64,000 nt of DNA from the NCBI GenBank assembly GCA_030765145.1, contig JAVCDA010000046.1, positions 6,142 through 70,141 of the forward strand. Direction: 5' to 3'. Positions 3,179 through 33,368 of the stretch are shown one piece after another. The stretch is from Candidatus Saelkia tenebricola (lineage in GTDB: Bacteria > Omnitrophota > Gorgyraeia > Kaelpiales > Kaelpiaceae). Every line of letters starts with the position of its first letter. The first letter of the stretch is position 1. The position numbers and the translations under genes were made by a program. The notes below the pieces were generated by a model. The model saw only the letters and a list, made by a program, of their open reading frames with translations. It was not told the origin of the DNA and made no database searches.

Positions 3179-3180
3179 TT

Positions 3181-13502: not shown

Positions 13503-14572
13503 GGTCATATAATATTGCAGTAATATCTGGTGATGGCACTGGTCCTGAAGTTATTCAGGAAGGGATAAAAGTGCTTAATGAGGCAGGTTTGAGATTTAAC
13601 TTTAAATTGAATTTTAAAGAATATGATTTTGGGGGAGAAAGATATTTAAAGACTCATGAAATATTGCTTGATTCTGATTTAGAAGAACTGAAAAAATATG
13701 ACACAATATATTTAGGGGCGATTGGGCATCCGGATGTTGCGCCTGGGGTACTTGAGAAGGGAATTTTGTTAAAGACAAGATTTGCATTAGATCAATATAT
13801 TAATCTAAGACCGGTTAAATTATATCCCGGTGTTGAGACTCCTCTAAAAGATAAGGGGCCTGATGATATCGATTTTGTAGTAGTAAGAGAAAATACAGAA
13901 GGCTTATATACAGGATGTGGCGGTTTTCTTAAGAAAGGTACTTCTGGTGAAGTTGCAATACAGGAATCTGTTAACACAAGATTCGGTGTTGAAAGATGTA
14001 TTAGATTTGCGTTTGAATACACAAAAAAGAGAAATAAAGCTAAAAAGCTTACCCTTTGCGGAAAAACTAATGTTTTAACCTATGCTTTCAATTTATGGGA
14101 GAGGGCATTTAATGAAGTGGCAAAAGAATATCCTGACATTACTACAGATTATGCGCATGTTGATGCTACTTGTATGTGGATGGTTAAGAATCCGGAATGG
14201 TTTGATGTCATTGTAACCGACAATATGTTTGGAGATATTATAACCGATTTAGGCGCTATGATACAGGGTGGTATGGGTATTGCTGCCGGAGGTAATATTA
14301 ATCCAGAGGGTGTTTCTATGTTTGAGCCTATTGGAGGTTCTGCTCCTAAATATACCGGTAAAAATATAATTAATCCTTTGGCTGCAATTTCAGCAGGAGC
14401 AATGATGCTCGAATATTTAGGGGAAGAAAAAGCAGCTTTAAAAATAGAGCAAGCTGTTATGTATGTTACAGCTAATAAGTTGAAAAGTTTATCGGCCGGT
14501 AAAATGGGCTATTCTACATCTGAAGTAGGTCAGATGGTGGCAGAATTTGTTGCTAAAGATAAAATTTGTTAG
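13481..14572 (+). CDS. leuB: 3-isopropylmalate dehydrogenase (isocitrate/isopropylmalate dehydrogenase family)
   Basis: 'IAVISGDGTGPEV' N-terminus and IDH/IMDH fold motifs. The assignment to leucine biosynthesis rests on adjacency to leuD. Confidence 0.75.
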   Translation: MGTENGVRSYNIAVISGDGTGPEVIQEGIKVLNEAGLRFNFKLNFKEYDFGGERYLKTHEILLDSDLEELKKYDTIYLGAIGHPDVAPGVLEKGILLKTRFALDQYINLRPVKLYPGVETPLKDKGPDDIDFVVVRENTEGLYTGCGGFLKKGTSGEVAIQESVNTRFGVERCIRFAFEYTKKRNKAKKLTLCGKTNVLTYAFNLWERAFNEVAKEYPDITTDYAHVDATCMWMVKNPEWFDVIVTDNMFGDIITDLGAMIQGGMGIAAGGNINPEGVSMFEPIGGSAPKYTGKNIINPLAAISAGAMMLEYLGEEKAALKIEQAVMYVTANKLKSLSAGKMGYSTSEVGQMVAEFVAKDKIC

Positions 14573-14582
14573 GGGGAAAAGA

Positions 14583-15605
14583 ATGAAAGAATATAACGTT
14601 GCAGTTGCTGGGGCAACCGGTGTTGTGGGCCGAGAAATGATTAATGTTTTAGAAGAAAGTGGGTTTCCTGTTAAAAAATTGCTTCCTTTAGCTTCAGAGC
14701 GTTCTTTAGGTAAAGAGGTTAATTTTAAGGGAAACAAAATCAAGGTGGAACTTTTAGGTGAAGATTCATTTAAGGATATAGATATAGCGTTATTTTCTGC
14801 AGGAGCTTCTATTAGCAAAAAAATTGCTCCTTTTGCAGTTCAGTCCGGGGGTGTTGTGATAGATAATTCCTCGGCTTTTCGAATGGATAAAGAAGTTCCT
14901 TTAGTTGTGCCGGAGGTAAATCCCCAAGATGCATTTAAACATAATGGTATTATAGCTAATCCCAATTGTTCGACAATTCAAATGGTTGTTGTTTTGAAAC
15001 CGATACATGATATGTTCGGGATAAAAAGGGTTATAGTCAGTACTTATCAGTCTGTATCTGGATGGGGGAAAGAAGCGGTGGATCAATTATGGAGTGAACT
15101 TGATGAAATAGTAAAAAATAGGCAGCCATTATTAAAAGAAAGAGTGGAAAAAGTACTTCCCCATCAAATAGCATTTAACCTGTTTCCTCACATAGATATA
15201 TTCACAGACGATGGCTATACAAAAGAAGAACTTAAGATGGCTAATGAAACTAATAAAATTATGCATGCAGATTTAGGTGTTAGTGCAACTTGTGTGCGAG
15301 TGCCGGTTTTAATTTCTCATAGTGAGGCAATTAATATAGAATTAAATAAAAGTGCGACTCCTGAGCAAATAAAAGAAGTACTTTCTAATGCCTCGGGTGT
15401 TAAGGTTATGGACGATGTAGCTGAAAATATATATCCAATGCCGTTATATGCTGCCGGTTATAATCCATCATATGTTGGAAGAATCAGAAAAGATTCAACT
15501 ATTGATAATGGAATCTGGCTTTGGGTGGTTTCAGACAATTTAAAGAAAGGCGCAGCTTTAAATGCAGTTCAGATTGCAGAATTACTGATAAAAGAAAAAC
15601 AGTAA
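14583..15605 (+). CDS. asd: aspartate-semialdehyde dehydrogenase
   Basis: 'VAVAGATGVVG' Rossmann motif and an active-site Cys in 'NPNCSTI'. An AGGGGGA RBS lies before the ATG at 14583. Confidence 0.9.
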   Translation: MKEYNVAVAGATGVVGREMINVLEESGFPVKKLLPLASERSLGKEVNFKGNKIKVELLGEDSFKDIDIALFSAGASISKKIAPFAVQSGGVVIDNSSAFRMDKEVPLVVPEVNPQDAFKHNGIIANPNCSTIQMVVVLKPIHDMFGIKRVIVSTYQSVSGWGKEAVDQLWSELDEIVKNRQPLLKERVEKVLPHQIAFNLFPHIDIFTDDGYTKEELKMANETNKIMHADLGVSATCVRVPVLISHSEAINIELNKSATPEQIKEVLSNASGVKVMDDVAENIYPMPLYAAGYNPSYVGRIRKDSTIDNGIWLWVVSDNLKKGAALNAVQIAELLIKEKQ

Positions 15606-15628
15606 TTTCTGAGTAGTCAATATCTGTT

Positions 15629-17140
15629 ATGAAAGAAGATTTTATGCAGCCTCACCGTCCTCAATGGAAGTCAAGAGTTGGTTTCTTACTTGCAGCGTTA
15701 GGTTCTGCAGTTGGTCTAGGTAATATCTGGCGGTTTTCATACCTTTGTTATAAAAATGGTGGTGGAGCTTTTTTAATTCCTTATTTCTGTGCTTTAATTT
15801 GTGTGGGGATACCTTTGATGATTCTTGAAATTGGACTAGGGCATAAAATGAGAGGTTCGGCACCTATGAGTTTGGCAAAGGTAAACCCCAAGTGGGAATG
15901 GCTTGGCTGGTGGTCTGTTATGTTTGTCATGTTTGGAATAGTTCTTTATTATTCTGTTATTATATCTTGGTGTCTTAATTATTTGGTTTATTCTCTGGAT
16001 TTAAAGTGGGGTTCAGACCCTAATGCGTTTTTCTTTAAGGATTTTTTATCTTTAACACGCGGGCCTTCTGAAATAGGTAATATACGTTCTAATATTTTAG
16101 GAGCACTTGCGATAGTATGGTTTATTAACTGGTTGATAGTATTTTTAGGAATTGAGAAAGGAATAGAACGAGCGAACAAAATTTTTATGCCTTTACTTTT
16201 TGTCCTGACAGCAATACTTGTTTTTTGGAGTGTAAAATTACCTGGAGCACGGGAAGGTATAAGAGTTTACTTAAAACCGGATTTTACGATTCTTTCTAAG
16301 CCTGGTGTCTGGATAGATGCTTTCTCTCAGATTTTCTTTACCTTAAGCTTAGGGTTCGGAATCATGATTGCTTATGCATCTTATCTTCCCAGAAAATCAG
16401 ATATAGTGTTAAATGTGTATTGTATTGCGGTGTTGAATTGTATGTTTTCTTTTTTTGCAGGTTTTGCAGTTTTTTCAACCATTGGATATATGGCGTATCA
16501 AACCAATATGAATTTTAAAGATGTAATTCAAGAGTCCATTGGTTTGGCTTTCATAGCATATCCTAAAGCGATAAGCTTGCTTCCTTTTTTGCCTCAGGTT
16601 TTTGGTTTCCTTTTTTTCAGCACTCTTTTTATCGCCGGAATTTCATCTTCGATTTCAATTATTGAAGCATTTAACTCTGCTGTGGTAGATAAGTTTCATT
16701 TGAACAGAAAAACAGTTACAAGTGTATTATGCCTTTTGGGATTTTTAGGCTCGATAATATTTGCTACCGGAGGGGGATTATTCTGGATTGATATCGTAGA
16801 TCATTTTCTTTCTCATTACGGATTGGTAATAGTCGGGATATTGGAATGTGTTCTTATTGCTTGGGTATATAGGGCTGAAAAATTAAGGCACCATATAGAT
16901 CGTGTTTCGGATTTGAAAGTAGGAGTTTGGTGGAATGGAGTTATTAAATATTTGGTGCCGGGGATACTTTTAGTTATGTTGGTGAATGATGTTGTCTATG
17001 AAATCTTTAACCCTTATGGTGATTACCCTACGGTTGCGATTATATTAATAGGTAGAGATTGGCTGCTATATTCACTTGTTGCTGCTTTTATTATCGCAAT
17101 GCGTCCCTGGAGAAAAGATATACATTTTAATGGTGAATAA
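15629..17140 (+). CDS. sodium-dependent transporter, neurotransmitter:sodium symporter (NSS/SNF) family
   Basis: 'AVGLGNIWRFSYLCYKNGGGAFLIPY' signature and about 12 TM segments. Confidence 0.85.
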   Translation: MKEDFMQPHRPQWKSRVGFLLAALGSAVGLGNIWRFSYLCYKNGGGAFLIPYFCALICVGIPLMILEIGLGHKMRGSAPMSLAKVNPKWEWLGWWSVMFVMFGIVLYYSVIISWCLNYLVYSLDLKWGSDPNAFFFKDFLSLTRGPSEIGNIRSNILGALAIVWFINWLIVFLGIEKGIERANKIFMPLLFVLTAILVFWSVKLPGAREGIRVYLKPDFTILSKPGVWIDAFSQIFFTLSLGFGIMIAYASYLPRKSDIVLNVYCIAVLNCMFSFFAGFAVFSTIGYMAYQTNMNFKDVIQESIGLAFIAYPKAISLLPFLPQVFGFLFFSTLFIAGISSSISIIEAFNSAVVDKFHLNRKTVTSVLCLLGFLGSIIFATGGGLFWIDIVDHFLSHYGLVIVGILECVLIAWVYRAEKLRHHIDRVSDLKVGVWWNGVIKYLVPGILLVMLVNDVVYEIFNPYGDYPTVAIILIGRDWLLYSLVAAFIIAMRPWRKDIHFNGE

Positions 17141-17145
17141 TCAAT

Positions 17146-17877
17146 ATGAGGAATCTTAAACTTATTCTTGAGTATGATGGTACAAATTTTATTGGTTGGC
17201 AAAGACAAAAGAAAGGCTCTAGTATTCAGGGTGAAATCGAGAGGGTTTTAGAAAAAATATTACATCAGGAAGTAAGATTGATTTCCTCTGGTAGAACAGA
17301 TGCAGGAGTGCATGCTAAATTTCAGGTGGCTAATTTTAAAGCCCGGAGTTTAATCTCTGCGCAAGATATCAGAAGAGCATTAAATTCATTATTGCCTAAA
17401 GATATCAGAATAAAAAAAGCAGAAGATGTAGAAGAAGATTTTCACGCTCGTTTCTGTGTTCAAAGTAAGATTTATAAGTATCATATCTATTTAGGAGAGC
17501 ATGTGTCTCCGTTTATATCCAAGTATGTATGGCATGTGCCTTTTGAGCTAAATTATTCCGTTATATTAAAGGAAATGAATTGTCTTTTAGGCTGGCATGA
17601 TTTTGCTAAATTTCAAGCTGTGGGGAGCAGGATAAAGAATACATCCAGGTGTATTAGTAATGTGGGTTTTAAAAAAAGTGGTTATTTTTATGAATTTACA
17701 ATAGAGGCTAATGGTTTTTTGTATAAAATGGTTAGGTTAATTGTAGGTACGTTGATTGAGGTGGGAAGGGGTAAATTTGATAGTGGCAGAATTGCTTCAT
17801 TGCTTAGGGGGGACGATGTTAAAAGAGGTTCTGTAGCTCCTCCTCAAGGTTTATTTTTATGGAAAGTAATTTATTGA
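17146..17877 (+). CDS. truA: tRNA pseudouridine(38-40) synthase TruA
   Basis: 'GRTDAGVHA' catalytic Asp motif; 243 aa. Confidence 0.9.
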   Translation: MRNLKLILEYDGTNFIGWQRQKKGSSIQGEIERVLEKILHQEVRLISSGRTDAGVHAKFQVANFKARSLISAQDIRRALNSLLPKDIRIKKAEDVEEDFHARFCVQSKIYKYHIYLGEHVSPFISKYVWHVPFELNYSVILKEMNCLLGWHDFAKFQAVGSRIKNTSRCISNVGFKKSGYFYEFTIEANGFLYKMVRLIVGTLIEVGRGKFDSGRIASLLRGDDVKRGSVAPPQGLFLWKVIY

Positions 17878-18665
17878 AAAAAACGGCTGCATTTTATCTT
17901 CAGGTTTTCCTTATAAAAATGGGGTGGAAGCGCTTCTGGGAAGGCATATATTATAGCAAAATGTTGGAATATCAGCTTGTTCTTAAGGAGTTTGATTTTG
18001 CTAAAAATTGTAAAGTTCTTGATGTTGGCCCGGGGAAGAGTTTTCTACCCTTTTATTGGATTTTTAGAGGTCAAGAAGTATGGCTGGTGGATAATGGGCA
18101 ATTCTATCCTGATTTTGATAAATATTATCATAAAGTTATGAAGCAGAAATTTTCATCCTTGAAAGAAAAAATAAGTATAATTTGGGGTAATTTTTTAGAA
18201 ATTGATTTTCCAACAAATTATTTTGATATTATTTGTGCTATCTCAACACTGGAACATTTCCAGTCTTCAGATGATATAAAAGCAGTAATGAGGTTAGCTT
18301 CTCTTCTAAAAAAAGGGGGCAAATGCATTATTAGTCTTCCTTTTTCTCAAAGCGGAACTAAAGAGTCGATTCTGACAGCAGATGAAGGAGGATATTCCTA
18401 TTTTCAAAGAGATTATGATTTAAGTTGCGTTTATGCCAGAATTATAGAACGTGCGGGTTTAAAGTTAAAATATTTTACTATAATCGGCGAAAGATTACCT
18501 TGTTTAGGAAAGATTTTCTTTTTTCAAAAACCTTTGTCTAATTTTAAGCCTTTTTGGACAATTTTTTTGACAAGTCTATTTTGGAAAGTTTATTATAAAG
18601 GAAAGACAAAAGAAGTAAAACAGTTTAAATATCCTGGTGTAATAATATTAGTTCTTGAAAAGTAA
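17859..18665 (+). CDS. class I SAM-dependent methyltransferase-like protein
   Basis: Motif I-like 'VLDVGPGKSF' and a post-II-like 'ISTLEHF'. Weak assignment. Overlaps the end of truA. Confidence 0.45.
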   Translation: MESNLLKKTAAFYLQVFLIKMGWKRFWEGIYYSKMLEYQLVLKEFDFAKNCKVLDVGPGKSFLPFYWIFRGQEVWLVDNGQFYPDFDKYYHKVMKQKFSSLKEKISIIWGNFLEIDFPTNYFDIICAISTLEHFQSSDDIKAVMRLASLLKKGGKCIISLPFSQSGTKESILTADEGGYSYFQRDYDLSCVYARIIERAGLKLKYFTIIGERLPCLGKIFFFQKPLSNFKPFWTIFLTSLFWKVYYKGKTKEVKQFKYPGVIILVLEK

Positions 18666-19612
18666 TGAAGATAGAAAAGATATCAATAGTTATACCGGCT
18701 TTTAATGAAGAAGAAAGCCTTGTTCCTCTATTAATCGAAATAAATAATTTGTTTAAAAAGCTGCAATATCAATATGAGGTGATAGTTATAGATGATGGAA
18801 GTTGTGATTCTACCTGGGATGTTATCCTTGATTTTTCCCGTAATTCAAGCGGAAATATCAAAGGAGTACGTTTAATAAAAAACTATGGACAGACGGCTGC
18901 AATTCAAGTTGGTTTTAAGGAGTCTTGCGGTGATGTTATAATTGTGATGGATGCTGATGGGCAGAATGATCCTAATGATATTGGTTATCTCATAGCCGAA
19001 ATTGAGAAAGGTTATGATATTGTCAGTGGTTGGAGACATCAAAGAAAAGACTTTTTTTTAAGAGTAATAATGTCTTGGATGGGAAATTTTTTAGTCAAAA
19101 AAATTAGTGGGCTTGATTTGCATGATGTTGGATGCAGTCTTAAAGCATATAGAAAAGAATATATTAAAGATGTAAAGCTTTTAGGTGAAATGCATAGAAT
19201 ATTGCTGATATATTTGGCTGAAAGGGGAGCGCGTGTTAAGGAATTAAAAGTTAATCATAGGAAAAGAATAAATGGTAAATCTAAATATGGTATGGGTAGA
19301 GTGGTGAAGCTTGTTATGGATTTGATATTGTATAAGTTTTTTACCAAGTTTGCTTCTAAGCCAATCTATATGTTCGGAGGATTAGGGTTTTTTAGTATTC
19401 TTTTTTCTTTTTTGTTAGGGTTGTTTGTAATTTATAGAAAAATTGCATTTCATGGGGCTTGGATCAGCCCTTTGTTTTTTATCTCTGTAACATTTCTTAC
19501 AGTAGGTATTATTTTTATAATGTTAGGTATACTGGCTGAGCTGCTGGTCAGGATATACTATCAAACTCAATACGAGCTTCCTTATCAGGTGAAAGAGAAA
19601 GTAAATTCTTAA
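18665..19612 (+). CDS. GT2 glycosyltransferase, polyprenol-phosphate sugar synthase-like (Dpm1/ArnC-like) with C-terminal TM helices
   Basis: 'VIPAFNEEESL', 'VIDDGSCD' and 'DADGQNDP' (DxD) motifs, with two C-terminal hydrophobic helices. Confidence 0.8.
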   Translation: MKIEKISIVIPAFNEEESLVPLLIEINNLFKKLQYQYEVIVIDDGSCDSTWDVILDFSRNSSGNIKGVRLIKNYGQTAAIQVGFKESCGDVIIVMDADGQNDPNDIGYLIAEIEKGYDIVSGWRHQRKDFFLRVIMSWMGNFLVKKISGLDLHDVGCSLKAYRKEYIKDVKLLGEMHRILLIYLAERGARVKELKVNHRKRINGKSKYGMGRVVKLVMDLILYKFFTKFASKPIYMFGGLGFFSILFSFLLGLFVIYRKIAFHGAWISPLFFISVTFLTVGIIFIMLGILAELLVRIYYQTQYELPYQVKEKVNS

Positions 19613-19615
19613 ATA

Positions 19616-21478
19616 ATGTGCGGTATACTGGGTGTAACGGGGCAGAATATTAAAGAAGATAAGGAGAGATTTGACGGGGCTCTTGATTTGTTATTTCATC
19701 GTGGTTCTGATGAAAAAGGAAGTTTCTACGGTGAAAATTTTATATTTGGTTCTCAACGTTTGAAAATTATAGATTTTAAGGATGGACAACAGCCTCTTTC
19801 GAACGAAAACAGGGATTTAGAAATAGTATTTAACGGTGAAATATATAATTATCTGAGATTAAGAGGTGATTTAGAAACTAAAGGATATCGTTTTAAGTCT
19901 AATACAGATACAGAAGTGATTCTACATCTTTACGAGGAAGAAGGGATAGAGTGCCTTGGGCATCTTGAAGGTATGTTTGCATTTGCAATATATGATAAAA
20001 GAAGAAAGATCTGTTTTTTAAGTAGAGATAGGTTCGGGATAAAACCGCTTTTTTATTGGACTGATAAAGAAAAACTTATTTTTTCTTCTGAAATAAAGCC
20101 TATTTTAAAAATATTGGGAAGGAAACCTGCTGTATCTATTGAAGCTTTAAATCTATATTTTTGGCTGGATTATGTTCCTTCTCCTTATACGATATATCAG
20201 GGTGTTCAGTCTCTTTTACCCAGTCATTATCTGGTTTTTTCTAATCAAGGGGTAAAGCGTAATAAATATTATAATTTGGAGATAAATGAATTTAAAAAAA
20301 CAACTATTAAAGAAGCTGTTGTTTCGGTTAGAAGTGTTTTGGGGGAGAGTGTTAAAAGGCATCTTGTTTCTGATACGGAAGTGGGATTGCTTTTAAGCGG
20401 GGGTATTGATTCCAGTATTTTAGCATATGAGATGTCGCGTAATCTTAATGAATTTAAAACATTCAATATGGGTTTTAAAAATTCCGGATATGACGAGTCT
20501 AAATATGCAGATATTGTTTCGAAGCAGTTTAATTCAGAACATAAATCAAAAGAATTTCCATCATTAGAGAGCATGCGTGATTTGGAAAAAATTGTTTCTT
20601 GTATGGAACAACCGTTTGCAGACCATTCAGTAATACCAACGTACTTAATATCTGAGTTTTCTTCTGATTATCTTAAAGTTGTTCTTGCAGGAGATGGCGG
20701 AGATGAAGTGTTTTTAGGATATCAGACTTATATCGCTCATAAATTGTTTAATTGGTTTCAATTTATACCTAGGAATCTTCGAAGAGAAATATTAAAAGCC
20801 ATACTTGTTTTCTTACCTAAATCCGATCGTTACTTCAGTCTGGATTTTTGCCTGGGAAGATTATTAAGGTCTCAAAGTAGGCAGGATATTAAAAGGCATA
20901 TTCACTGGATGGAAAGTTTTGGAGAGGAAAGAAAAGTTTTACTCGGATCGGCATATAGAAATATTGAAGAACAATATTTGAATTTTACAGAAAGTACCTT
21001 TATTACAACAGACAATCTTATGGGCCGAATTCAACAATTTGATATTTTTACATATCTTAGTAATGATATTTTATACAAGAGTGATTTTGCCGGGATGATG
21101 AATTCACAAGAGGTAAGAGTTCCTTATTTAGATCATAAAGTGGTTGAACTCGGACTTTCTTTACCGTATGAGTTTAAATTGAAAGGTTTAAGAGGAACAA
21201 AATATGTTTTAAAACGAGCATATCGAGATGTTTTGCCACGCAGTGTATTAATGAGGAAAAAAATGGGTTTTAGTTTACCTACGGCAAGCTTATTTAGAAA
21301 AGAACTAAAAAGTTTGATGCTGTCTTTTATTGAAGATAAAAATATGGGGGATTATTTAAATGTGGATTATATAAAAAAAATATTTAATGAGCATTTGCGT
21401 CATGAATCAAATAATCGTAAAATGCTTTGGAATATTTTAATATTTTTTCTTTGGTATAAAAATAATGAAACTAAATAA
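19616..21478 (+). CDS. asnB: asparagine synthetase (glutamine-hydrolysing) family amidotransferase
   Basis: 'MCGILGV' N-terminal nucleophile Cys2 and the 'SGGIDSS' PP-loop. Confidence 0.85.
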   Translation: MCGILGVTGQNIKEDKERFDGALDLLFHRGSDEKGSFYGENFIFGSQRLKIIDFKDGQQPLSNENRDLEIVFNGEIYNYLRLRGDLETKGYRFKSNTDTEVILHLYEEEGIECLGHLEGMFAFAIYDKRRKICFLSRDRFGIKPLFYWTDKEKLIFSSEIKPILKILGRKPAVSIEALNLYFWLDYVPSPYTIYQGVQSLLPSHYLVFSNQGVKRNKYYNLEINEFKKTTIKEAVVSVRSVLGESVKRHLVSDTEVGLLLSGGIDSSILAYEMSRNLNEFKTFNMGFKNSGYDESKYADIVSKQFNSEHKSKEFPSLESMRDLEKIVSCMEQPFADHSVIPTYLISEFSSDYLKVVLAGDGGDEVFLGYQTYIAHKLFNWFQFIPRNLRREILKAILVFLPKSDRYFSLDFCLGRLLRSQSRQDIKRHIHWMESFGEERKVLLGSAYRNIEEQYLNFTESTFITTDNLMGRIQQFDIFTYLSNDILYKSDFAGMMNSQEVRVPYLDHKVVELGLSLPYEFKLKGLRGTKYVLKRAYRDVLPRSVLMRKKMGFSLPTASLFRKELKSLMLSFIEDKNMGDYLNVDYIKKIFNEHLRHESNNRKMLWNILIFFLWYKNNETK

Positions 21479-23180
21479 ATATTTTCTATTATTGGTAATG
21501 TTTTTTGTGATTTATTCTATCGTGGGTAGCTTAATCATTAAAAGCGATGACCATCTTTCAACGACTGATGCTCCTAATCATGCAGTTTTTTGTCTGCGGG
21601 ACTATCAGAACACTCTAGAAGTGTTTAGAGATATAGATATTAATTTTTTGAAAAATATACAGCGTTTAAAAGATATATTTACAAAAGGAGTTATTTACTG
21701 GCCAAAGTTTGTATATTTAACATCTTTTCCTTTAATGTATTTTTCAGAATCAACGGTTGCCGCATTAAAGATTACAAATGTTTTTTATCTATTTTTATTA
21801 ATGGTTTTCAGCTACCTTTTAACTTTAAAACTGGGAGGGAAGAGGAATGAAGGAGTTTGGGTTGCATCTTTAATGCCTCTTTATCCTTTTATTTCTAAAT
21901 CTATTTCAAGTTACGGTTTGGATTTTCCTCTTACTGTGAGCGTGGTGATATTCTTATATCTGTTGTTAAAAACCGAAGGCTTTAAAAACACGTTTTATTC
22001 TTTACTTTTAGGTTTAATTTTAGGAATATCTACTCTTATTAAAGGACAGGTTCTTTTATTCGTATCAGCTCCTTTATTAGTTTATTTCATAAATTCTGTT
22101 ATCAGAGAAATCAAGGGGAGGAAGGATTTAATATCTATATTTGTGATATTTGCTAATCTAGTGATATTTGGTATATTTTCTTTTCAAATAGGTAGTTTAT
22201 GGTGGGGGGGTAAATTAGATGAAATATTGCTTTCTTTTGGAGAACATGTGGGTAGCGGAATTAAACACCTGGAAAGTTATCCTCAGGAGGCTTATGGCAG
22301 TCTGAGTTATTATTTTTTTTACTTTAAATATTTATTTTTAAAAGGTTTAGGTCCGTTACTTATGATTATTACAGGTGCGTTTTGCTTAAGATATATTTTT
22401 GTTTTTAAAGATAAGGGGAAGAGGATTTTATTAGTTTGGGTATTGGTGCCGTTTTTTATTTTTTCAGTTTTGTTAGTAGTACATCAGCTAAGATTTATAA
22501 TGCCGATTGTGCCTGCAATGGGCATAATGACTGTTTTAGGTTCCAGGTTTCGAAAAAATAGTCTAACTTTTATTCTGAGATTTATAATGCTATCTTTGGC
22601 ATGTTTCCAGTTGTTTCTGTTATTTGGCGGTATTAACAAAGGGCGTTTCCGTAGTTTGTTTAGTTTTGATGGAGATATGATATTAAATAAGGACAATCCG
22701 AATGCAAGTATAGCTGAATATTTTATAAATGAATTAAAAAATAATTTTTCAGAAGATATATATAAAGTTGTAATAATAAGATTTGCTGATATAGAAGACG
22801 GTCCTATGGGGCTGCAGTTTTGGATAGAAAATAAAGGCTACCAGCATGGAGTCAGGTTGATAACTCATGATATATTCGATCAATGGAATGCAGCATATCA
22901 ATGGTTAAGCGAAGAAGGTAAGTATATGATACTATTTATAGGAAATGAAGAATTTAATTTTGACAATAAAGATCTTTGGGATAAAAACGAGATTTTAAAA
23001 ATTGGTAAGCAATGGATGCCTAGGTTTGAAGCGTTCAAAAACTGTTCGCAGACAAAGGAATTATTAGATAGCATATTGCCTGTTGTTAAGAGTAATTCTA
23101 ATTATGTCTCAAGTTTTAGCTGCGAAGATTATTATTATTGTGAAATTTATGAATATAGCAATGTTCAACAATCTTATTGA
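21465..23180 (+). CDS. multi-pass membrane protein, GT-C fold glycosyltransferase-like (ArnT/PMT, GT39/GT83-like), with a C-terminal soluble domain
   Basis: About 11 predicted TM helices, an acidic first periplasmic loop 'SDDHLSTTDAP', and a roughly 200-aa hydrophilic C-terminus. Assignment by architecture only. Confidence 0.4.
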   Translation: MKLNKYFLLLVMFFVIYSIVGSLIIKSDDHLSTTDAPNHAVFCLRDYQNTLEVFRDIDINFLKNIQRLKDIFTKGVIYWPKFVYLTSFPLMYFSESTVAALKITNVFYLFLLMVFSYLLTLKLGGKRNEGVWVASLMPLYPFISKSISSYGLDFPLTVSVVIFLYLLLKTEGFKNTFYSLLLGLILGISTLIKGQVLLFVSAPLLVYFINSVIREIKGRKDLISIFVIFANLVIFGIFSFQIGSLWWGGKLDEILLSFGEHVGSGIKHLESYPQEAYGSLSYYFFYFKYLFLKGLGPLLMIITGAFCLRYIFVFKDKGKRILLVWVLVPFFIFSVLLVVHQLRFIMPIVPAMGIMTVLGSRFRKNSLTFILRFIMLSLACFQLFLLFGGINKGRFRSLFSFDGDMILNKDNPNASIAEYFINELKNNFSEDIYKVVIIRFADIEDGPMGLQFWIENKGYQHGVRLITHDIFDQWNAAYQWLSEEGKYMILFIGNEEFNFDNKDLWDKNEILKIGKQWMPRFEAFKNCSQTKELLDSILPVVKSNSNYVSSFSCEDYYYCEIYEYSNVQQSY

Positions 23181-26055
23181 AGCAGATTCTCATGATACTG
23201 TGCTTGTAATGATTCCTACATGGTATCCTTGGATACCTCCTATGGGGTTGGCGTATGTAGAGAGTTATTTAAATCATAAGGGGTATAATTCTCTGGTGTA
23301 TGATTTTAATGCTAAGCTTTATAACTCTGCTTGTGAAGAAGGTAAGAAGTTTTGGGATATAAGTACAATAAGCGCATTGCCTTTATCAGAAGTAGTTAGA
23401 AATATAAGTGAAAAATTTTCGGAGGAAATAGATAGGTTGGCTGGGATTTTAACAGAAAGACCGGAATCTATTATAGGTTTTTCAGTCAATTTGTTAAGTA
23501 TTCATATCGCAAGTTCTATTGCTCAAAAAATTAAGAGTAAAAATGCTAAGAAATTAATAGTTTTCGGAGGCCCTGGTTGTTTTTGGAGTTATGACAGGGA
23601 TGTGGTTCCCTTAGGGGTAGTAGATGTATTTGTAGTGGGAGAAGGGGAATTACCTTTTTATGAAGTAGTGGATAATTTTTATAAAGGGCTTGATTCATCA
23701 AACATCAAGGGTATTGTGATATATAAAGATGGGAAATTAAAAGATAATACTCCGGCTAATCCTGTTTTAGATTTAGATGAAATACCGTACCCGACATTTG
23801 AAGATTTTGATTTAGATGACTATGGTCAGGGTGAGCAGCAGGCCACATTACCGATAGGTGTAAGCAGGGGTTGCATTTCAAAATGTACTTTTTGTGTTGA
23901 TCATGTAATGTGTAATCCTTTCAGAATGAGAAGTCCTGAGCATGTAATTAAAGAGATGGAATATCATATTTCTGTTAACGGTATTAATAATTTTTCTTTT
24001 AATGATTTGCTATGTAACGGTCATCTTGGCAAGCTTGAAAAATTGTGTGACCTAATTATCAAAAGGGGTTTAAAGATTAAATGGGGTAGTTATGCTGTAG
24101 CACGAGGAGATATGCATCTAAGGCTTTTAAATAAGATGAAACAGGCGGGATGTGAGACTATTTGCTATGGGATAGAAAGCGGTTCGGATAAGATTTTAAA
24201 AATAATGAGCAAGATCTATAATTCATCCGATGCTGAAAAAGTTTTACGTCTGACGCATAAAGCGGGAATAAAAGCAACATTCAACATAATTATAGGTTAT
24301 CCTGGTGAAAGTAAAAAAGAGTTTAAGGAAACGCTTGATTTTGTTAAAAGAAATAAAAAATATATAACCAGTATAATAAATGTGTCTACGCTTTTTATAA
24401 ATCCTACAGCGTCTTTAGGAACTAATCCTGAGAAATTTAACATATATTTCCCTAAGCATCCTTCAGCATTTAGAATGGTGACATTGAAAAAACTTTTCAT
24501 TCCTCGGTACTATAAAATATTTGGAGTAAATAAACCTGTTCTAGAATTGCAAGGTATTGATTTTTCAAATTTTGTAGATAGTAATGGAAATACAAAACCT
24601 GAAAGACTAAAAAGATTAATAAAGGTTCTTAAACTTATCCATAGATTGGATTTGGTAAAATATGACCCAATTATAAACGTTTATCCTACGGAGAACAAAA
24701 GTGTTAAAAAGGCTATTAAAAATCTTAAAGAGCGCTGTAGTTTAACTTTTAAAGAAGTATCTTTAAAATGTGATTTTTTGGGTTTTGCTGCAATTTATCA
24801 TAAAAACAGGATTATAAGTTCTGGTTCCGGTTTAAATGTAGCTTTTAGAATAGGTGAAGAATGGTATGATACTTCTTGTTATTCTTGGGATATTAAGAAA
24901 ATCCGATCCAATGTTTTAAAAGTTTCTATTGCAATGGATGATATAGGAATAAAGCAGATGTGGACTTTTAAGTTTAACAAATTGGGATTGTTTTGGAAAA
25001 TAAATGGGTTTTTTAAAGAGAAAGACAACTCGCCTGATGAAATAAAATTAGGTTTACATGCTTCAACTTTATATAAATACTGGTTATCTCATCATTATGA
25101 AGGGGAATTTCCTGAACTTAATAATGAAGAATGGAGGTGTTTGCAATTTAAGCATATAAAAGAAGTTTCTGTTTTAGTTGATAAAGATGAGGATGCTGAT
25201 GTTGGTAAAATTGTGGTGAATAAAATAAAAAGCTCAGAACCTTTTTCTTTACGGTTGGAGAATCCCCTAAAACAATATAATTTTAGATTCTTAGCGTTTC
25301 AAAATTTGAGATCTAAACTTTACAGAAAAAACAATTTTAATGTTGATTTATTTATAAAATTTGAAAAAACAATTGGAAATACTAAGCTTCTTAAAAAATA
25401 TTTTATAGATAATATTAAATCCGAAAGATTGTATGTTGCTCGTAAAAACAAGGAGTTTTACATCAAAGTGCAAAGGGATGATGTTAAGTTGTATTATAAA
25501 GAAAATGAATTAACTTCTTCATATGGTGGCAATGTTTTTTTTCGTATTAATGGTGAGATTTTTGACACAACAAATGCTAAACGAGATGTTTTGGTTAAAA
25601 GTAAATTTATACAATATAAAGTGGAATGGGACAATACACCTTTAATATTACTTTGGGGTATGTGTTTAAATGAAAATAAGATGTTTTGGAATTTTGAAAT
25701 CACCTCTCAAAAAAAGTTAAAATTAGAAGAGATTCGATTTGGTATCTTTTTAAATAAGGACTATGTTAATTGGTATGCAGGTGCATTTAGAGGCATATTA
25801 CACACAATGCCGGAAAATGAAGGGCTGTTGATACCTTTAAGAAAATTTATAGGTAATAAAATATGTATAGAACCGGTTAATAAACACTTGCCGTCTGTAA
25901 CTTACTTTAAACCAAAGAAAGTTGGTTTTTTTCAAGTAGGGATTAATGATTTAAATTTGGGAGGGGGAAAATGTATCAGTACTGTCATAGAGAATATATC
26001 GCTTGATAATTGTAAACCCTTAAAATTTAGTTCCAAATTTGAATTCAAAAGATGA
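23161..26055 (+). CDS. B12-binding-domain radical SAM protein with a roughly 530-aa C-terminal extension of unknown type
   Basis: An N-terminal B12-binding-like Rossmann region, a CxxxCxxC cluster 'CISKCTFC' and the following radical-SAM core, then roughly 530 aa with no motif I recognise. The start is uncertain (ATG 23104, 23149 or 23161; the ORF opens at 23083 and overlaps the upstream gene). Confidence 0.7.
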   Translation: MFNNLIEADSHDTVLVMIPTWYPWIPPMGLAYVESYLNHKGYNSLVYDFNAKLYNSACEEGKKFWDISTISALPLSEVVRNISEKFSEEIDRLAGILTERPESIIGFSVNLLSIHIASSIAQKIKSKNAKKLIVFGGPGCFWSYDRDVVPLGVVDVFVVGEGELPFYEVVDNFYKGLDSSNIKGIVIYKDGKLKDNTPANPVLDLDEIPYPTFEDFDLDDYGQGEQQATLPIGVSRGCISKCTFCVDHVMCNPFRMRSPEHVIKEMEYHISVNGINNFSFNDLLCNGHLGKLEKLCDLIIKRGLKIKWGSYAVARGDMHLRLLNKMKQAGCETICYGIESGSDKILKIMSKIYNSSDAEKVLRLTHKAGIKATFNIIIGYPGESKKEFKETLDFVKRNKKYITSIINVSTLFINPTASLGTNPEKFNIYFPKHPSAFRMVTLKKLFIPRYYKIFGVNKPVLELQGIDFSNFVDSNGNTKPERLKRLIKVLKLIHRLDLVKYDPIINVYPTENKSVKKAIKNLKERCSLTFKEVSLKCDFLGFAAIYHKNRIISSGSGLNVAFRIGEEWYDTSCYSWDIKKIRSNVLKVSIAMDDIGIKQMWTFKFNKLGLFWKINGFFKEKDNSPDEIKLGLHASTLYKYWLSHHYEGEFPELNNEEWRCLQFKHIKEVSVLVDKDEDADVGKIVVNKIKSSEPFSLRLENPLKQYNFRFLAFQNLRSKLYRKNNFNVDLFIKFEKTIGNTKLLKKYFIDNIKSERLYVARKNKEFYIKVQRDDVKLYYKENELTSSYGGNVFFRINGEIFDTTNAKRDVLVKSKFIQYKVEWDNTPLILLWGMCLNENKMFWNFEITSQKKLKLEEIRFGIFLNKDYVNWYAGAFRGILHTMPENEGLLIPLRKFIGNKICIEPVNKHLPSVTYFKPKKVGFFQVGINDLNLGGGKCISTVIENISLDNCKPLKFSSKFEFKR

Positions 26056-27221
26056 AAAAAAGAATTTTTATTTGTTTATTATTGTTGCTTGTGTTAGTTT
26101 CAACCGCGCGATATATTCGCAGGGCTCCCAAGAGAGATTATTCTGATTTTCATGTAGTGTATTCTACGGCTCAAAGATTTATCCAGGGAGAAGAAATTTA
26201 TACATTTGAGGGGGATGTTTCTTATTATAAATATCCTCCTTTTTATGCTTTTTTAACATCTTTTCTGGCATTTTCAAGTGAATTTAAAGCAGCTGTTCTC
26301 TGGCACTTTTTAAATTGGATATTTTTATTTTTAATTTTTTTCTCTTGGTTAAATATACTTGATTCTAAGAAAAGGATTTTAATTTCAATGCTGGTTTTTA
26401 TATTCAGCTTCCGTTTTATTTTGGAAAATATGGATCAGGGGCAGGCAAATATATCATTTTTAGCGTTTAGTAGCATTGCTTTCTATTTTTATTTTAAAGG
26501 AAAACGAAATATATCTGCTTTGTTTTTAGCCGTTTCCATTCTTTCAAAATATCTTTCCATTGTATTTATACCATTTTTTATTATACGAAAAGAGTATAAA
26601 TATGCATTGAGGACTTTGGTGTTTTTAGTAATATTATATTTTTCCCCGGTTATTCTAACAGGTGTGGAAAGAATGTATCATTTGATGATGCAAAATATAC
26701 AATTTTTATTTAGCAGTTCTTTAGATAATTATTCGATTACTTGTTATCCCAATCAGTCTCTTTTAGCGGCTTTAAGAAGAATGTTTTCTTTAAATCAGTG
26801 GTATCCTACCCAGGTGTATGCTTTGTCGGATAAAACTATCTCCTTTATATTTTTTATGGCAAGTTTCATTCTGTTATTTTTAGCATATATACCAAGACGG
26901 GATATAAGGATTAATATAGGGTTGATTTCAGGCTTAATTCCGCTTTTAAATCCCAATGGCTGGAAGAATTCGTTTATTTGGCTTATTGTACCTAGTATGA
27001 TTTTATTTCAGCAGATATTTGAAAAAAGAGTAAAGAATAAATTCTTAATAACAATGGTTATCTTGTCATTTGTTTTTACCTCATGTACTAGTGAATTCTT
27101 TGTTTATTGGTGGGCGAAAGATTGGTTTGAAATTTATTCGTTTGTTACTTATGGTGCATTATTCCTATATTTTGCATTACTAAAATTTAATCTTAGCAAT
27201 AAAATCATATCTGAGAAATAG
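26052..27221 (+). CDS. DUF2029/GT87-family membrane glycosyltransferase-like protein
   Basis: N-terminal 'DF...Y...GEEIY...YKYPPFYAFL' motif typical of DUF2029 (PimE/AftC-like polyprenol-P-sugar-dependent transferases); multi-TM. Confidence 0.5.
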   Translation: MKKRIFICLLLLLVLVSTARYIRRAPKRDYSDFHVVYSTAQRFIQGEEIYTFEGDVSYYKYPPFYAFLTSFLAFSSEFKAAVLWHFLNWIFLFLIFFSWLNILDSKKRILISMLVFIFSFRFILENMDQGQANISFLAFSSIAFYFYFKGKRNISALFLAVSILSKYLSIVFIPFFIIRKEYKYALRTLVFLVILYFSPVILTGVERMYHLMMQNIQFLFSSSLDNYSITCYPNQSLLAALRRMFSLNQWYPTQVYALSDKTISFIFFMASFILLFLAYIPRRDIRINIGLISGLIPLLNPNGWKNSFIWLIVPSMILFQQIFEKRVKNKFLITMVILSFVFTSCTSEFFVYWWAKDWFEIYSFVTYGALFLYFALLKFNLSNKIISEK

Positions 27222-27329
27222 AGGTTTTCCAGAACCAGATTCATTGCATATTTTGAATTGACTTGGCTAATCTAATGGTGCATTATTAGATTATGTTGCA
27301 AAGAAGCAGCAATTTGAATTTTGGTTTTC

Positions 27330-27367
27330 AAAGCAACTCGTATTTTTCAGAGTTGCTTTTTTGTTTT
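27330..27367 (+). terminator. Rho-independent terminator (stem AAAGCAACTC / GAGTTGCTTT, 10-nt loop, T-tract)
   Basis: Perfect 10-bp inverted repeat followed by TTTTTTGTTTTT, located downstream of the glycan cluster. Confidence 0.75.
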
Positions 27368-27382: not shown

Positions 27383-29713
27383 ATGAGTGATGCAGGAAAA
27401 ACAAAAGCAGAGATTATAAATGAGTTGAATAGGTTGCGTCGGAAGATTGCTAGATTTAAGAGGATGGAAGTTGGTTTTAGAAAGACAGAGAAAGAGTTAA
27501 AAGAAAGCGAGAAGCAATATCGTCAATTAGCAAAAACTTCTATGGAAGCTTCTGCTATTTATGGGGAAGGTAAGATCTTAGCAGCAAACCAGAAATTTGT
27601 GCAGATGTTTGGGTATAAAAAATCAGAATTAATTGGGATGGATATTTTAAATTTGTTTGCACATGAATATCGAAATTCGGTAAAGAAAAATATTTTTTCT
27701 GAATATAAAAAGTTATATCAGGTAGTTGGTCTTAAGAAAGATGGCCCAAGTTTTATAGCCGAGATATATACATATAAAAGATGCAAAGCAAGAGTCATTG
27801 TGATTTGTGATGTCGTTGGGCAAAAGGAAAAAGGAGAAGAATTTATTGAATTTAAAACTATATCTGATGTTGCTCAATATGGTGCTGCTATTGTAGATAT
27901 TAGCGGTAAGATTGTGTATCTCAATAAATCGTTTGCTGATATGCATGGATATAAAGAGAGAGAGCTTGTCGGCAAACATTTTTCTGTGTTACATTCTAAA
28001 AATCAAATGAGACGGGTTAATGAATTGTTCACTATGATTAAAAAAAGTCAGGGGTATGCTAATGAGAAAGTGGGGCATATTAGAAAAAACGGAACTGTTT
28101 TTCTAACTTCAATGAGTGGGAGCCTTATAAAAGATGATAAAGGAATCCCGGTTTTTATGGCTGCTACAGCTGTTGATATATCAGAAGATAATAAGGTAGA
28201 GAGGGTTCTTCAGGAAGAGCGGGTACAGCTTCTTTCGATATTTGATAGCATTGATGAGGTGATTTATGTGGCAGATCCGGTTACTTACCGTATTCTTTAT
28301 ATGAACAAATATTTTGAAAATATATTGGGTAAAAATTCTGTAGGCAAATTGTGTTATCAGGAATTTCAAGGTTTAAAACAGCCGTGCAATTTTTGTACCA
28401 ATAAGATAATTTTACGGAAAAAAGATGAGCCGTATAGATGGGAATACTACAACCCTTTTTTAAACAAGCATTATGCCATAGCCGACCGTATTATAAAATG
28501 GTCTGATGGGAGAGATGTGAGATTTGAAATTGCAATGGATATAACCAATCTCAAAAAAGCAGAAGAAGAAGTGCGGAGAGAGAAAGAGTTTGCGGAAGCT
28601 CTTATTGAAACAGCACAGGTTATTGTATTGGTTTTGGATCCCAAGGGGAAAATTATCAGTTTCAATCCTTATATGGAGGAATTGTCTGGATATACGATAG
28701 ATCAGGTTCGCAATAAGAGTTGGTTTAATACGTTTTTGCCAAAACAGGATAGAGTCAAAACACGTCGATTATTCTTAAAATCAATAGACGGTATTCAGAC
28801 TAAAGGCAATATAAATGCTATTATTATTAAGGATGGTAAACGGCGGCATATAGAATGGCATGATAAAACTCTCAAAGATAAACAAGGTAAGACAATTGGT
28901 TTATTAGCTACCGGTTATGATGTTACTGAACGCAGAGAAGCAGAAAGGGTATTGATAAAATATAAGGATGGGTTGGAGCAAGCTGTTACGAGAAGGACTC
29001 AAGAATTAGTAAAAACTCAAAAAAAACTCGAAGATGCAAAACGTCTTTCTGATATCGGTATGCTTGCTGCTACGGTTGCGCACGAGTTGAACAACCCCCT
29101 AGGTGTTATAAAAACAGCGGTTTTTAATATAAGGAGAAAAGTAGAGTCTCGAGTTATAGATACTCATCTTCTAAATATAGAGAAGAAGATTTCAGAAAGC
29201 GTACGTATTATAAATAATCTTTTAAGTTATTCTCATATAAAAATTCCGCGGTATGAAAACATAGCGGTTCTTAAGATATTAGAGGAATGCCTTATTCATT
29301 GCAAGGAAAGGTATTCGAGGTTGAATTTAAAAATTAAAAAGGATTACAGTTGTAAGGAAAATAAAACTATTGAAGCAGACTCTCTTCATATGAACGAGCT
29401 TTTCTCAAATATTTTGGAAAATTCTTTTCAGTCTTTTAATAATAAAAATGGGAGGTTAAGTATAATTGTCAATTGTGATAATAAAATGAATGAATTTAAT
29501 ATGGTTGTTAAAGATAACGGAAAAGGGTTAAGTAAAAAAGATTTATCAAAAGTATTTGAACCATTTTTCACAAATAAAGCAAAAGGGATAGGTTTAGGTC
29601 TTACGGTGTGTAAAGAGGTTGTAGCCCTTCATAAAGGAACAATAAGTATCTCAAGTAAAGAAGGAGTAGGTACAACTGTTTTTGTAAGTTTGCCGATTAG
29701 TAAAAAGAGTTGA
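27383..29713 (+). CDS. multi-PAS sensor histidine kinase
   Basis: Several PAS-like repeats, a HisKA H-box 'AHELNNPL', and HATPase_c G-boxes 'KDNGKGL' and 'GIGLGL'. No response regulator is adjacent. Confidence 0.85.
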   Translation: MSDAGKTKAEIINELNRLRRKIARFKRMEVGFRKTEKELKESEKQYRQLAKTSMEASAIYGEGKILAANQKFVQMFGYKKSELIGMDILNLFAHEYRNSVKKNIFSEYKKLYQVVGLKKDGPSFIAEIYTYKRCKARVIVICDVVGQKEKGEEFIEFKTISDVAQYGAAIVDISGKIVYLNKSFADMHGYKERELVGKHFSVLHSKNQMRRVNELFTMIKKSQGYANEKVGHIRKNGTVFLTSMSGSLIKDDKGIPVFMAATAVDISEDNKVERVLQEERVQLLSIFDSIDEVIYVADPVTYRILYMNKYFENILGKNSVGKLCYQEFQGLKQPCNFCTNKIILRKKDEPYRWEYYNPFLNKHYAIADRIIKWSDGRDVRFEIAMDITNLKKAEEEVRREKEFAEALIETAQVIVLVLDPKGKIISFNPYMEELSGYTIDQVRNKSWFNTFLPKQDRVKTRRLFLKSIDGIQTKGNINAIIIKDGKRRHIEWHDKTLKDKQGKTIGLLATGYDVTERREAERVLIKYKDGLEQAVTRRTQELVKTQKKLEDAKRLSDIGMLAATVAHELNNPLGVIKTAVFNIRRKVESRVIDTHLLNIEKKISESVRIINNLLSYSHIKIPRYENIAVLKILEECLIHCKERYSRLNLKIKKDYSCKENKTIEADSLHMNELFSNILENSFQSFNNKNGRLSIIVNCDNKMNEFNMVVKDNGKGLSKKDLSKVFEPFFTNKAKGIGLGLTVCKEVVALHKGTISISSKEGVGTTVFVSLPISKKS

Positions 29714-33031: not shown

Positions 33032-33063
33032 TGTTATATGGTGAAAATAAAGGAGGTAGCGAA

Positions 33064-33366: not shown

Positions 33367-33368
33367 AA

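Follow-up and report, generated by a model that had tools for sequence, protein, structure and literature searches.

A conserved Omnitrophota gene module, predicted to act in surface-glycan decoration, with an AsnB-type amidotransferase and a radical SAM enzyme bearing a tandem beta module

Introduction

Which molecule is decorated, and at which step is it tailored, when a polyprenyl-phosphate sugar synthase and membrane glycosyltransferases are encoded in one compact array together with an amidotransferase and a radical S-adenosylmethionine (rSAM) enzyme? The question is raised by positions 17859-27367 of a 64-kb stretch of DNA (hereafter, the window) from the metagenome-assembled genome (MAG) of Candidatus Saelkia tenebricola (Omnitrophota), a genome that was first reported from Ace Lake, Antarctica (PMC8542988). 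The original prediction for this array was a seven-gene module for periplasmic glycosylation, parallel to the Arn pathway, in which the two embedded enzymes would amidate and/or C-methylate the sugar to be transferred.

The analysis reported here leads us to favour, with modest confidence, an Omnitrophota-specific module for the decoration of a surface glycan, built on the three-component (Gtr/Arn/Gac-like) principle and with tailoring at the level of the glycan. In the three-component logic, a family 2 glycosyltransferase (GT2) makes a lipid-linked donor, which is flipped and then used by a glycosyltransferase of the GT-C fold (PMC11127046). Periplasmic decoration by an undecaprenyl-phosphate-sugar synthase and a GT-C enzyme is well known; its constant coupling to an AsnB-type amidotransferase and a class-B rSAM enzyme is not described, and literature searches for the gene combination found none. 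Also new is a tandem all-beta module at the C-terminus of the rSAM enzyme, an unannotated domain through which an export ATPase, radical tailoring and transfer by GT-C enzymes are linked in Omnitrophota, an uncultured phylum whose bacteria are very small and possibly dependent on hosts.

Gene content of the module

Six open reading frames (ORFs), all on the + strand, were found in the array (Table 1); the count of seven is reached only if truA (17146-17877), which starts upstream of position 17859, is included.

Table 1. Coordinates of the features of the module in the window (aa, amino acids; TM, transmembrane; AF2, AlphaFold 2).
Feature	Position	Strand	Basis and remarks
Methyltransferase (MT)	17859-18665	+	Methyltransf_11/Methyltransf_25 matches; class I SAM-dependent, soluble; optional member
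GT2, ArnC/GtrB-type polyprenyl-phosphate sugar synthase (predicted)	18665-19612	+	PF00535; alignment to solved structures; two C-terminal TM helices
AsnB-type glutamine-dependent amidotransferase, long polysaccharide-locus form (predicted)	19616-21478	+	Asn_synthase, GATase_7, TIGR01536
GT-C membrane glycosyltransferase, ArnT/PMT-like (predicted)	21465-23180	+	571 aa; AF2 model and Foldseek; C-terminal alpha/beta domain
rSAM protein (964 aa), catalytic half, class-B (B12-binding type; predicted)	23161-24657	+	Radical_SAM
rSAM protein, C-terminal tandem all-beta pair	24658-26055	+	About 200 aa each; AF2 model and Foldseek
GT87 (DUF2029, PimE-like) membrane glycosyltransferase (predicted)	26052-27221	+	PF09594; optional second transferase
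Intrinsic-terminator-like hairpin and T-run	27330-27367	+	Folding energy against shuffles

The GT2 protein matches PF00535 (E 5e-30), with the DxD motif represented by DAD in VMDADGQND, and its residues 3-310 align to residues 7-311 of the solved ArnC structure 9hwj (E 7e-51), the next solved structures being GtrB 5ekp (E 2.6e-24) and the dolichyl-phosphate mannose synthase 5mlz. This full-length alignment, together with two hydrophobic segments at the C-terminus (233-258 and 264-300), bears out the Dpm1/ArnC-like synthase with C-terminal TM helices that had been proposed. The ArnC equivalog NF007986 is not reached (200.7 bits against a cut-off of 529), and the protein is therefore ArnC-like but not ArnC. 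Its second-best NCBIfam match is PgfS (E 1.9e-36).

The AsnB-type identity of the amidotransferase is likewise upheld by TIGR01536 (444.8 bits, above the cut-off of 267.1), Asn_synthase (E 1.2e-81) and GATase_7 (E 9e-45), with the glutaminase Cys2 intact in the N-terminal MCGILG and the PP-loop in place (LSGGIDSS). It aligns over its full length to the XrtA/PEP-CTERM amidotransferase model TIGR03108 (438 bits, below the cut-off of 817) and reaches just 300 bits, split over three stretches, with the E. coli AsnB model; by its length and full-length alignment it is nearer to the former type than to E. coli AsnB. The nearest solved structure is a hydroxyamidotransferase, AsnB being the second. 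The gene is located directly 3' of the GT2 gene in the window and in three other loci (L008, L009 and L018), and inside the clusters of L011 and L016; the adjacency in four contexts suggests that AsnB acts on the substrate or the product of the GT2 enzyme.

The predicted methyltransferase is a generic class I enzyme (Methyltransf_11, E 1.9e-8; Methyltransf_25, E 2.2e-7), as had been anticipated, and a homologue 31% identical to it is found among the rSAM genes of L016. Since MT, AsnB and rSAM contain no hydrophobic segment, they should be cytoplasmic.

The fold assignment of the GT-C protein rests on modelling. Its sequence has no significant Pfam match (PMT_2, 17.6 bits, below the cut-off of 26.1), and sequence searches of this protein and of the GT87 protein against PDB chains returned noise alone; PF13231 or PF02366 is nevertheless present in several homologues, among them P0124, P0125 and P0130-P0137. 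The family is tiny, with 17 matches among 5.8 billion proteins. The AF2 model built on the alignment of homologues (pLDDT 80.8, pTM 0.85) was matched by Foldseek first to ArnT (PDB 5ezm/5f15; E 1e-7, TM-score 0.50-0.56) and then to STT3/PglB, ALG12, AftA, Emb and Pmt. Every one of the top 44 PDB matches is a membrane protein of the GT-C fold; most are glycosyltransferases, and three are chains of the GPI transamidase complex. The helices of the model and the lysine and arginine counts fit 11 TM helices in an N-in/C-out topology. D35, in the motif TxDAPNH right after the first TM helix, does not vary within the close family and is kept in at least 90% of the full set of 16 sequences, and D153, K193 and R343 are invariant; according to the modelled topology, these four residues, the loop 248-296 and the C-terminal alpha/beta domain would be periplasmic. 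The GT87 protein matches PF09594 (E 4.5e-19, 69.6 bits, above the cut-off of 25) and contains at least seven hydrophobic segments; a look-up of its exact sequence gave no entry. The 11-TM, ArnT-like protein and the DUF2029/GT87 membrane transferase of the original prediction are therefore both recovered, and neither is a transporter, the one having the GT-C fold by model and the other matching PF09594. A second, distant GT-C paralogue (23% identity; PMT_2, E 4e-5) is encoded by Kaelpia imicola at 21091-22674 of L001, about 8 kb downstream of its module, with no counterpart at the syntenic position of the window.

The rSAM core of the 964-aa protein is clear (PF04055, E 1.2e-18, 68.2 bits against a cut-off of 29.5), and its CxxxCxxC cluster motif (CISKCTFC) is invariant across the homologues. 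An NCBI entry named 'radical SAM protein' of Candidatus Saelkia tenebricola has 100% identity to it. Of the B12-rSAM identity proposed earlier, the rSAM part is upheld by this core, and the B12-binding domain PF02310 of the window protein scores below threshold (24.4 bits, cut-off 32.1); the domain is recorded by Pfam in most of the homologues and is clear in that of L009 (85.6 bits). The best NCBIfam matches are a C-methyltransferase of ribosomally synthesized and post-translationally modified peptides (RiPPs), PhpK, ApyD and HpnJ (the last with E 1.4e-32), at 113-132 bits and all far under their cut-offs, so that the C-methylation previously suggested is one of several possible class-B chemistries; the reaction could be a methylation or a rearrangement of the HpnJ/calditol-synthase kind. 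A hopanoid pathway of the HpnI/HpnJ type was set aside, the HpnJ score being far below its cut-off and no hopanoid gene being present among the annotated ORFs of the window (some 50 of its 66 ORFs with 100 aa or more). A RiPP pathway, evoked by the resemblance of AsnB to a lasso cyclase and by the best match of the rSAM enzyme, was rejected as well: AsnB still has its glutaminase Cys2, along with a strong GATase domain, the overlapping genes leave no room for a precursor ORF, and the constant partners are the polyprenyl-phosphate GT2 and GT-C enzymes.

Conservation of the core genes

Nine distinct related loci were retrieved (L001-L004, L006, L008, L012, L013 and L015; L005, L007 and L014 are duplicates), and a scan of a genome collection with a narrower GT-C alignment gave four loci. 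The order GT2-AsnB-GT-C-rSAM is the same in all nine, the contig of L015 ending inside the GT-C gene. MT is present in the window, L001, L002, L004, L008, L013 and L015 and missing in L003, L006 and L012. GT87 is found in the window, L002 and L008 only; its slot is empty in L001, L003, L006 and L013, and in L004 it is occupied by a different multi-TM protein of 458 aa with an acidic motif after the first TM helix. The constant core is thus GT2-AsnB-GT-C-rSAM, with MT and GT87 as optional members; with that correction, the gene set is conserved as a unit in the relatives, as the original prediction required.

The same association was disclosed in more distant Omnitrophota, where GT2, B12-rSAM, PMT_2-type GT-C and usually AsnB occur together in other orders and contexts. 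In L009 the order is GT2-AsnB-rSAM-three PMT_2-MT-GT2-GT4-GT4; L011 contains a GT2, three B12-rSAM genes, a DegT gene, three PMT_2 genes, AsnB and several GT2/GT4 genes; L016 contains seven rSAM genes, for four of which a B12-binding domain is recorded, together with MT, an ArnC-sized GT2, two PMT_2 genes and AsnB; and L017 contains rSAM, GT4, GT2, carbamoyltransferase and PMT_2 genes. In L018 the genes encode, one after the other, an ABC-2 (Wzm-like) permease, a Wzt-like ATPase with three copies of the beta module, an rSAM-SPASM protein with the module, a B12-rSAM, a GT4, a GT2 (44% identical to that of the window) and an AsnB (39% identical). Of the nine related loci, L008 retains the core in a different downstream context. 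The rearranged distant loci are stronger evidence for the association than the synteny of the close relatives. GT2 is found in all the related loci with 56-80% identity, and with 35-47% identity in L009 and L016-L018.

The module does not evolve at a uniform rate. Across the close relatives, the identity to the window is 72-84% for the housekeeping neighbours, 52-63% for GT2, AsnB and the rSAM core, 35-45% for GT-C and 28-37% for the C-terminal half of the rSAM protein; fast divergence of the GT-C enzyme and of the beta module would be expected for parts contacting a variable glycan.

Four species-representative genomes with the module (L012-L015) are deposited as MAGs of 'uncultured Planctomycetia bacterium'; the identity of their proteins to the Saelkia GT-C is 41-64% and the synteny is shared, and the deposited taxonomy is probably wrong or outdated.

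The tandem beta module

Residues 500-964 of the rSAM protein are matched by no Pfam family, Wzt_C included. The AF2 model computed on the family alignment (pLDDT 82.4) consists of two all-beta domains, which are the outcome of an internal duplication (25% identity, E 3e-9) and whose conserved positions are rich in aromatic residues. Their best Foldseek matches in the PDB are supersandwich folds of the galactose-mutarotase-like type (E 1e-10 to 1e-5), comprising the N-domains of GH94 phosphorylases and of a cyclic glucan synthase, aldose-1-epimerase-like proteins, domain 5 of LacZ, and YidC P1.

The module is rare: a complete phmmer scan covering 1.84 billion representatives yielded only 140 proteins with it. 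A profile search with the beta-domain segments returned a single protein. When 52 of the 140 were annotated with Pfam, 27 contained ABC_tran, 6 Radical_SAM and 3 PMT_2. By means of HMMs and motif searches, 133 of the 140 were classified, the remaining 7 having come from earlier searches. The largest annotated class (49/133) comprises ATPases with a Walker A motif and a signature of the YS.GM type, followed by two to five copies of the module, one of them also with CxxxCxxC; 12 are B12-rSAM proteins like that of the window, 8 are GT-C proteins like that of the window with the module at the C-terminus, and 8 are other CxxxCxxC proteins. In 56 the module stands alone; many of these may be fragments, and a few have an ABC signature with no detectable Walker A. 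The best scores of the ATPases are to TagH and Wzt models, and one of them is named 'ABC-type polysaccharide/polyol phosphate transport system ATPase' by JGI. Taxonomy was read from cluster names: of ten proteins that were looked up, six carry the name of a source organism, in each case a member of the Omnitrophota, to which the module therefore appears to be restricted, as judged from these six.

From its modelled fold and its fusion partners, the module is probably a glycan-recognition module. If it does bind glycan, it would offer a handle for locating surface polysaccharide loci in Omnitrophota, a candidate new family of carbohydrate-binding modules (CBMs) and, for the first time, defined proteins with which to test radical-SAM chemistry on a polysaccharide. 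Should it not bind glycan, the locus would remain a conserved example of the Arn/Gtr type with unusual accessory enzymes.

Very large multi-domain rSAM proteins clustered with GT2/PMT_2 genes were observed in L016 (1-18617) and L017 (1-11644), namely a triple rSAM-SPASM of 1412 aa, a double B12-rSAM of 1034 aa and two rSAM-SPASM proteins with beta modules of 1179 and 1394 aa, a much expanded version of the single rSAM of the window.

Proposed mechanism and alternative explanations

According to the favoured reading, the GT2 enzyme would take a sugar from a nucleotide donor and attach it to undecaprenyl phosphate at the cytoplasmic face of the membrane, a flippase encoded elsewhere would flip the lipid-linked sugar, and the GT-C enzyme (likewise GT87, where present) would transfer it onto a glycan acceptor in the periplasm; an LPS (lipopolysaccharide) heptosyltransferase II gene in the window points to an LPS-bearing diderm envelope and therefore to a periplasm. 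AsnB might convert a carboxyl into a carboxamide at the expense of glutamine and ATP, most simply on a uronic acid, either in the donor from the adjacent GT2 or in the glycan itself, and MT might add an O- or N-methyl group. The soluble rSAM enzyme would dock through its tandem beta module onto the lipid-linked glycan in the cytoplasm and modify it there by radical chemistry, for which C-methylation is the default assumption with a class-B enzyme. As acceptor, the GT-C enzyme would most likely use a polysaccharide exported by a Wzm/Wzt-type ABC transporter, because sister lineages carry the same beta module on a Wzt-like ATPase, at the position of the Wzt CBM. The occurrence of one module on glycan-exporter ATPases and on GT-C enzymes suggests both that the rSAM enzyme is targeted to the glycan chain in the cytoplasm and that the GT-C acceptor is this glycan once it has been exported, and neither lipid A nor a protein. 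AsnB and rSAM would then probably be aimed at a lipid-linked glycan and not at lipid A. The logic of a polyprenyl-phosphate synthase serving GT-C transferases, as originally predicted, is retained in this reading, an ArnC/GtrB-type GT2 adjoining the GT-C-fold and GT87 proteins; the idea that AsnB and rSAM tailor the monosaccharide donor is not, since the fusions of the beta module point to recognition of a glycan chain instead.

A bolder proposal, which we regard as possible and hold tentatively, is that the beta module is an Omnitrophota 'reader' domain common to the ABC exporter, the cytoplasmic rSAM enzyme and the periplasmic GT-C enzyme, so that one surface polysaccharide would be recognized at export, radical modification and glycosylation, and the 964-aa enzyme would act directly on the lipid-linked polysaccharide. 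To our knowledge, no such direct action of B12/radical-SAM chemistry on a lipid-linked polysaccharide has been described for surface glycans.

Several points weigh against the favoured reading. No flippase (GtrA, SMR or MATE-like) is encoded in the module or in the window, the overlapping genes of the module leaving no room for a further ORF and no small multi-TM ORF of the window qualifying as one; the window contains neither a Wzm/Wzt pair nor a backbone glycosyltransferase, and no gene of a nucleotide-uronic-acid pathway is linked to the module. Glycan binding by the beta module is putative, the modelled fold being shared with YidC P1, which is not known to bind sugars, and in none of the tests run did the module show homology to a known Wzt CBM family. 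The rSAM homologues of L009 and L011 have no beta module, which is thus not essential to the association, and the B12-binding match of the window protein is below threshold. The functions of all the members of the module are predicted from sequence and models. Finally, the synteny of the close relatives is weak evidence alone, because most of these loci share the housekeeping flanks too (leuB, asd, SNF, truA ... cdd, dnaX).

The strongest competitor, which we nevertheless consider unlikely, places the tailoring at the level of the donor: AsnB and rSAM would act on a nucleotide sugar or on an undecaprenyl-phosphate-linked monosaccharide, so that an amidated and/or C-methylated monosaccharide would be flipped and transferred by the GT-C enzyme, the beta module helping to bind the lipid-linked monosaccharide or the membrane. 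ArnD is a precedent for tailoring at the polyprenyl-phosphate level. Auxiliary epimerases are described as acting at that level too (PMC11127046). The direct adjacency of GT2 and AsnB in the window, L008, L009 and L018 would be easily accommodated, as would the module-free rSAM homologues of L009 and L011 beside GT2/PMT_2 genes. However, a double module of about 200-aa domains is better suited to the recognition of a glycan chain than to that of a single lipid-linked sugar, and homologous modules are found in two to five copies on Wzt-like ATPases and also on the periplasmic end of GT-C enzymes.

An Arn/Rgt-like modification of lipid A or of the LPS core would exploit the same machinery, the GT-C enzyme moving the sugar from undecaprenyl phosphate onto a lipid A phosphate or a core sugar and thereby altering the charge of the envelope, a change that the neighbouring PAS histidine kinase might control. 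ArnC and ArnT are the closest solved relative of the GT2 and the closest fold match of the GT-C enzyme, the window contains the LPS heptosyltransferase II gene, and a PAS histidine kinase gene lies 3' of the module in the window, L001, L003 and L006. This explanation appears improbable to us: the acceptor cannot be told from fold similarity, the ArnC equivalog score falls short, and the module contains no equivalent of ArnA, ArnB, ArnD or ArnE/F; the kinase gene is separated from the module by the terminator, and L002, L004, L008 and L013 do not have it; moreover, the fusions of the beta module to exporter ATPases and the presence of homologous gene modules in GT4/GT2-rich polysaccharide clusters point to a polymer.

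Least of all do we expect a PMT-like O-glycosylation of Ser/Thr-rich regions of secreted or membrane proteins, as by Pmt of actinobacteria or PgfS/PgfM of streptococci (proteins are the targets of PgfS-type systems; PMC12041528), for which the Pfam PMT/PMT_2 matches of the homologues, their naming as GT39 by NCBI and the PgfS match of the GT2 can be adduced, and against which stand the position of Pmt structures well below ArnT and oligosaccharyltransferase in the fold search, the absence of a candidate acceptor protein linked to the module and the link of the beta module to Wzt-type exporters, which favours a polysaccharide.

Comparison with known systems

Three-component systems comprise GtrA/GtrB/Gtr* of Shigella and Salmonella, GacI-L and PgfS/PgfM of streptococci, CsbB/GtcA/YfhO, and the pentofuranose system of C. 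youngae (PMC11127046, PMC8035078). Like them, the module pairs a membrane-anchored GT2 of the polyprenyl-phosphate sugar synthase type with at least one GT-C-fold transferase, and its distant relatives are tied to polysaccharide loci of the ABC-transporter type; unlike them, it has no flippase gene of its own and is constantly coupled to AsnB and a class-B rSAM.

The parallel with the Arn pathway drawn in the original prediction stands for the two enzymes ArnC and ArnT and fails for the remaining components, and the acceptor is probably not lipid A. A DegT aminotransferase is encoded 23 kb away, best matched to PseC with all its matches below the cut-offs.

In characterized Wzt proteins, a C-terminal CBM recognizes the terminus of the glycan (PMC11127046, PMC9445017). 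A beta-rich module C-terminal to a nucleotide-binding domain of the Wzt/TagH type is what was found in the 49 ATPases described above, and in L018 such an ATPase is encoded beside an ABC-2 permease. In contrast to the Wzt CBM, the module of the window is a galactose-mutarotase-like supersandwich, occurs in two to five tandem copies in relatives and is also fused to rSAM and GT-C enzymes; no Wzt structure is found among its top 50 PDB matches, and the two are thus analogous in their position on the ATPase only, binding by the module being putative.

Class-B rSAM enzymes acting on sugars or lipid-linked sugars include the C-methylases GenK and GenD1 and HpnJ of hopanoid cyclitol ether synthesis. 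Calditol synthase, cited in bioRxiv 10.1101/2023.10.20.563219, is another class-B rSAM of this kind. The protein of the window resembles them in having an rSAM core and a candidate N-domain of the B12-binding type, with HpnJ among its best matches and, as for HpnI/HpnJ, a GT2 as genomic partner; it differs from GenK, GenD1, HpnJ and calditol synthase in its scores, in its unique fusion to a tandem beta module and, compared with the hopanoid and antibiotic enzymes, in its partnership with a GT-C-based system of periplasmic transfer. Uronamide formation is carried out by amidotransferases of the WbpS type. AsnB shares with these polysaccharide-locus enzymes (TIGR03108, WbpS-type) the long form of about 620 aa, the intact glutaminase and a location among glycosyltransferases; unlike TIGR03108 members, it misses the cut-off of that model and has no PEP-CTERM/exosortase context.

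Operon structure

The window is AT-rich (about 34% G+C) with a strong positive GC skew, and nearly all its genes are carried by the + strand. The overlaps of 1-20 nt reported for the array were found at the MT/GT2 (1 nt), AsnB/GT-C (14 nt), GT-C/rSAM (20 nt) and rSAM/GT87 (4 nt) junctions, but not between GT2 and AsnB, which are separated by a 3-nt gap. The GT-C/rSAM overlap would be 32 or 77 nt if the rSAM gene started at 23149 or 23104 instead of 23161, the 983-aa NCBI call implying 23104. Upstream, truA overlaps MT by 19 nt and is the last gene of a nearly gapless co-directional run (leuD-leuB-asd-SNF, a sodium symporter-truA) that begins at 13017 and continues into the module, suggesting that the transcription unit probably begins upstream of the latter. 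The module is therefore the probable 3' part of a longer operon, without an obvious start of its own, and the glycan genes are probably co-transcribed with genes for amino-acid biosynthesis and tRNA modification; the tight packing is not special to the module. No information came from a promoter scan, which gave 88 sites where 77.5 were expected. The order from leuD to truA (13017-17877) is also kept in Kaelpia and in other relatives.

The terminator predicted at the end of the array was confirmed as a terminator-like hairpin with a stem of 10 bp and a loop of 10 nt, followed by UUUUGUUUUU; its folding energy is -12.9 kcal/mol (z = -3.9), and none of 200 shuffles folds as well. A consensus terminator scan overlooked it, its loop limit being 8 nt.

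Other genes of the window

Just past the terminator, the gene at 27383-29713 encodes a sensor histidine kinase rich in PAS (three PAS stretches, HisKA and HATPase_c). The protein has no TM segment, and the neighbouring genes include no response regulator. Two adjacent small ORFs (33031-33695; 111 and 108 aa) without family match follow recR and are located in the same position in L001, L002 and L004; as ArnE/F-like flippases, the ORFs at 33031 and 33369 were rejected, both being soluble.

At 49343-51522, the LPS heptosyltransferase II gene (TIGR02195, 135.3 bits, cut-off 134.6) overlaps by 4 nt a gene for a sugar aminotransferase of the DegT family, a pair from which synthesis of an LPS core and the presence of an amino-sugar pathway can be read for this genome. 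A second, short GT2 (60321-61001; 226 aa), without TM helices, resembles polyprenyl-phosphate sugar synthases (PpgS, E 6e-29; AglJ, E 7e-25; both below cut-off) and is encoded directly upstream of a protein-L-isoaspartate O-methyltransferase gene.

At the opposite end of the window (209-4753), a permease of the FecCD family and an ABC ATPase, of a family that includes cobalamin and siderophore importers, are followed by an SDR (short-chain dehydrogenase/reductase) epimerase/dehydratase, a dTDP-glucose 4,6-dehydratase (TIGR01181, above cut-off) and a HAD (haloacid dehalogenase) hydrolase; these genes could supply cobalamin and deoxy-sugar donors.

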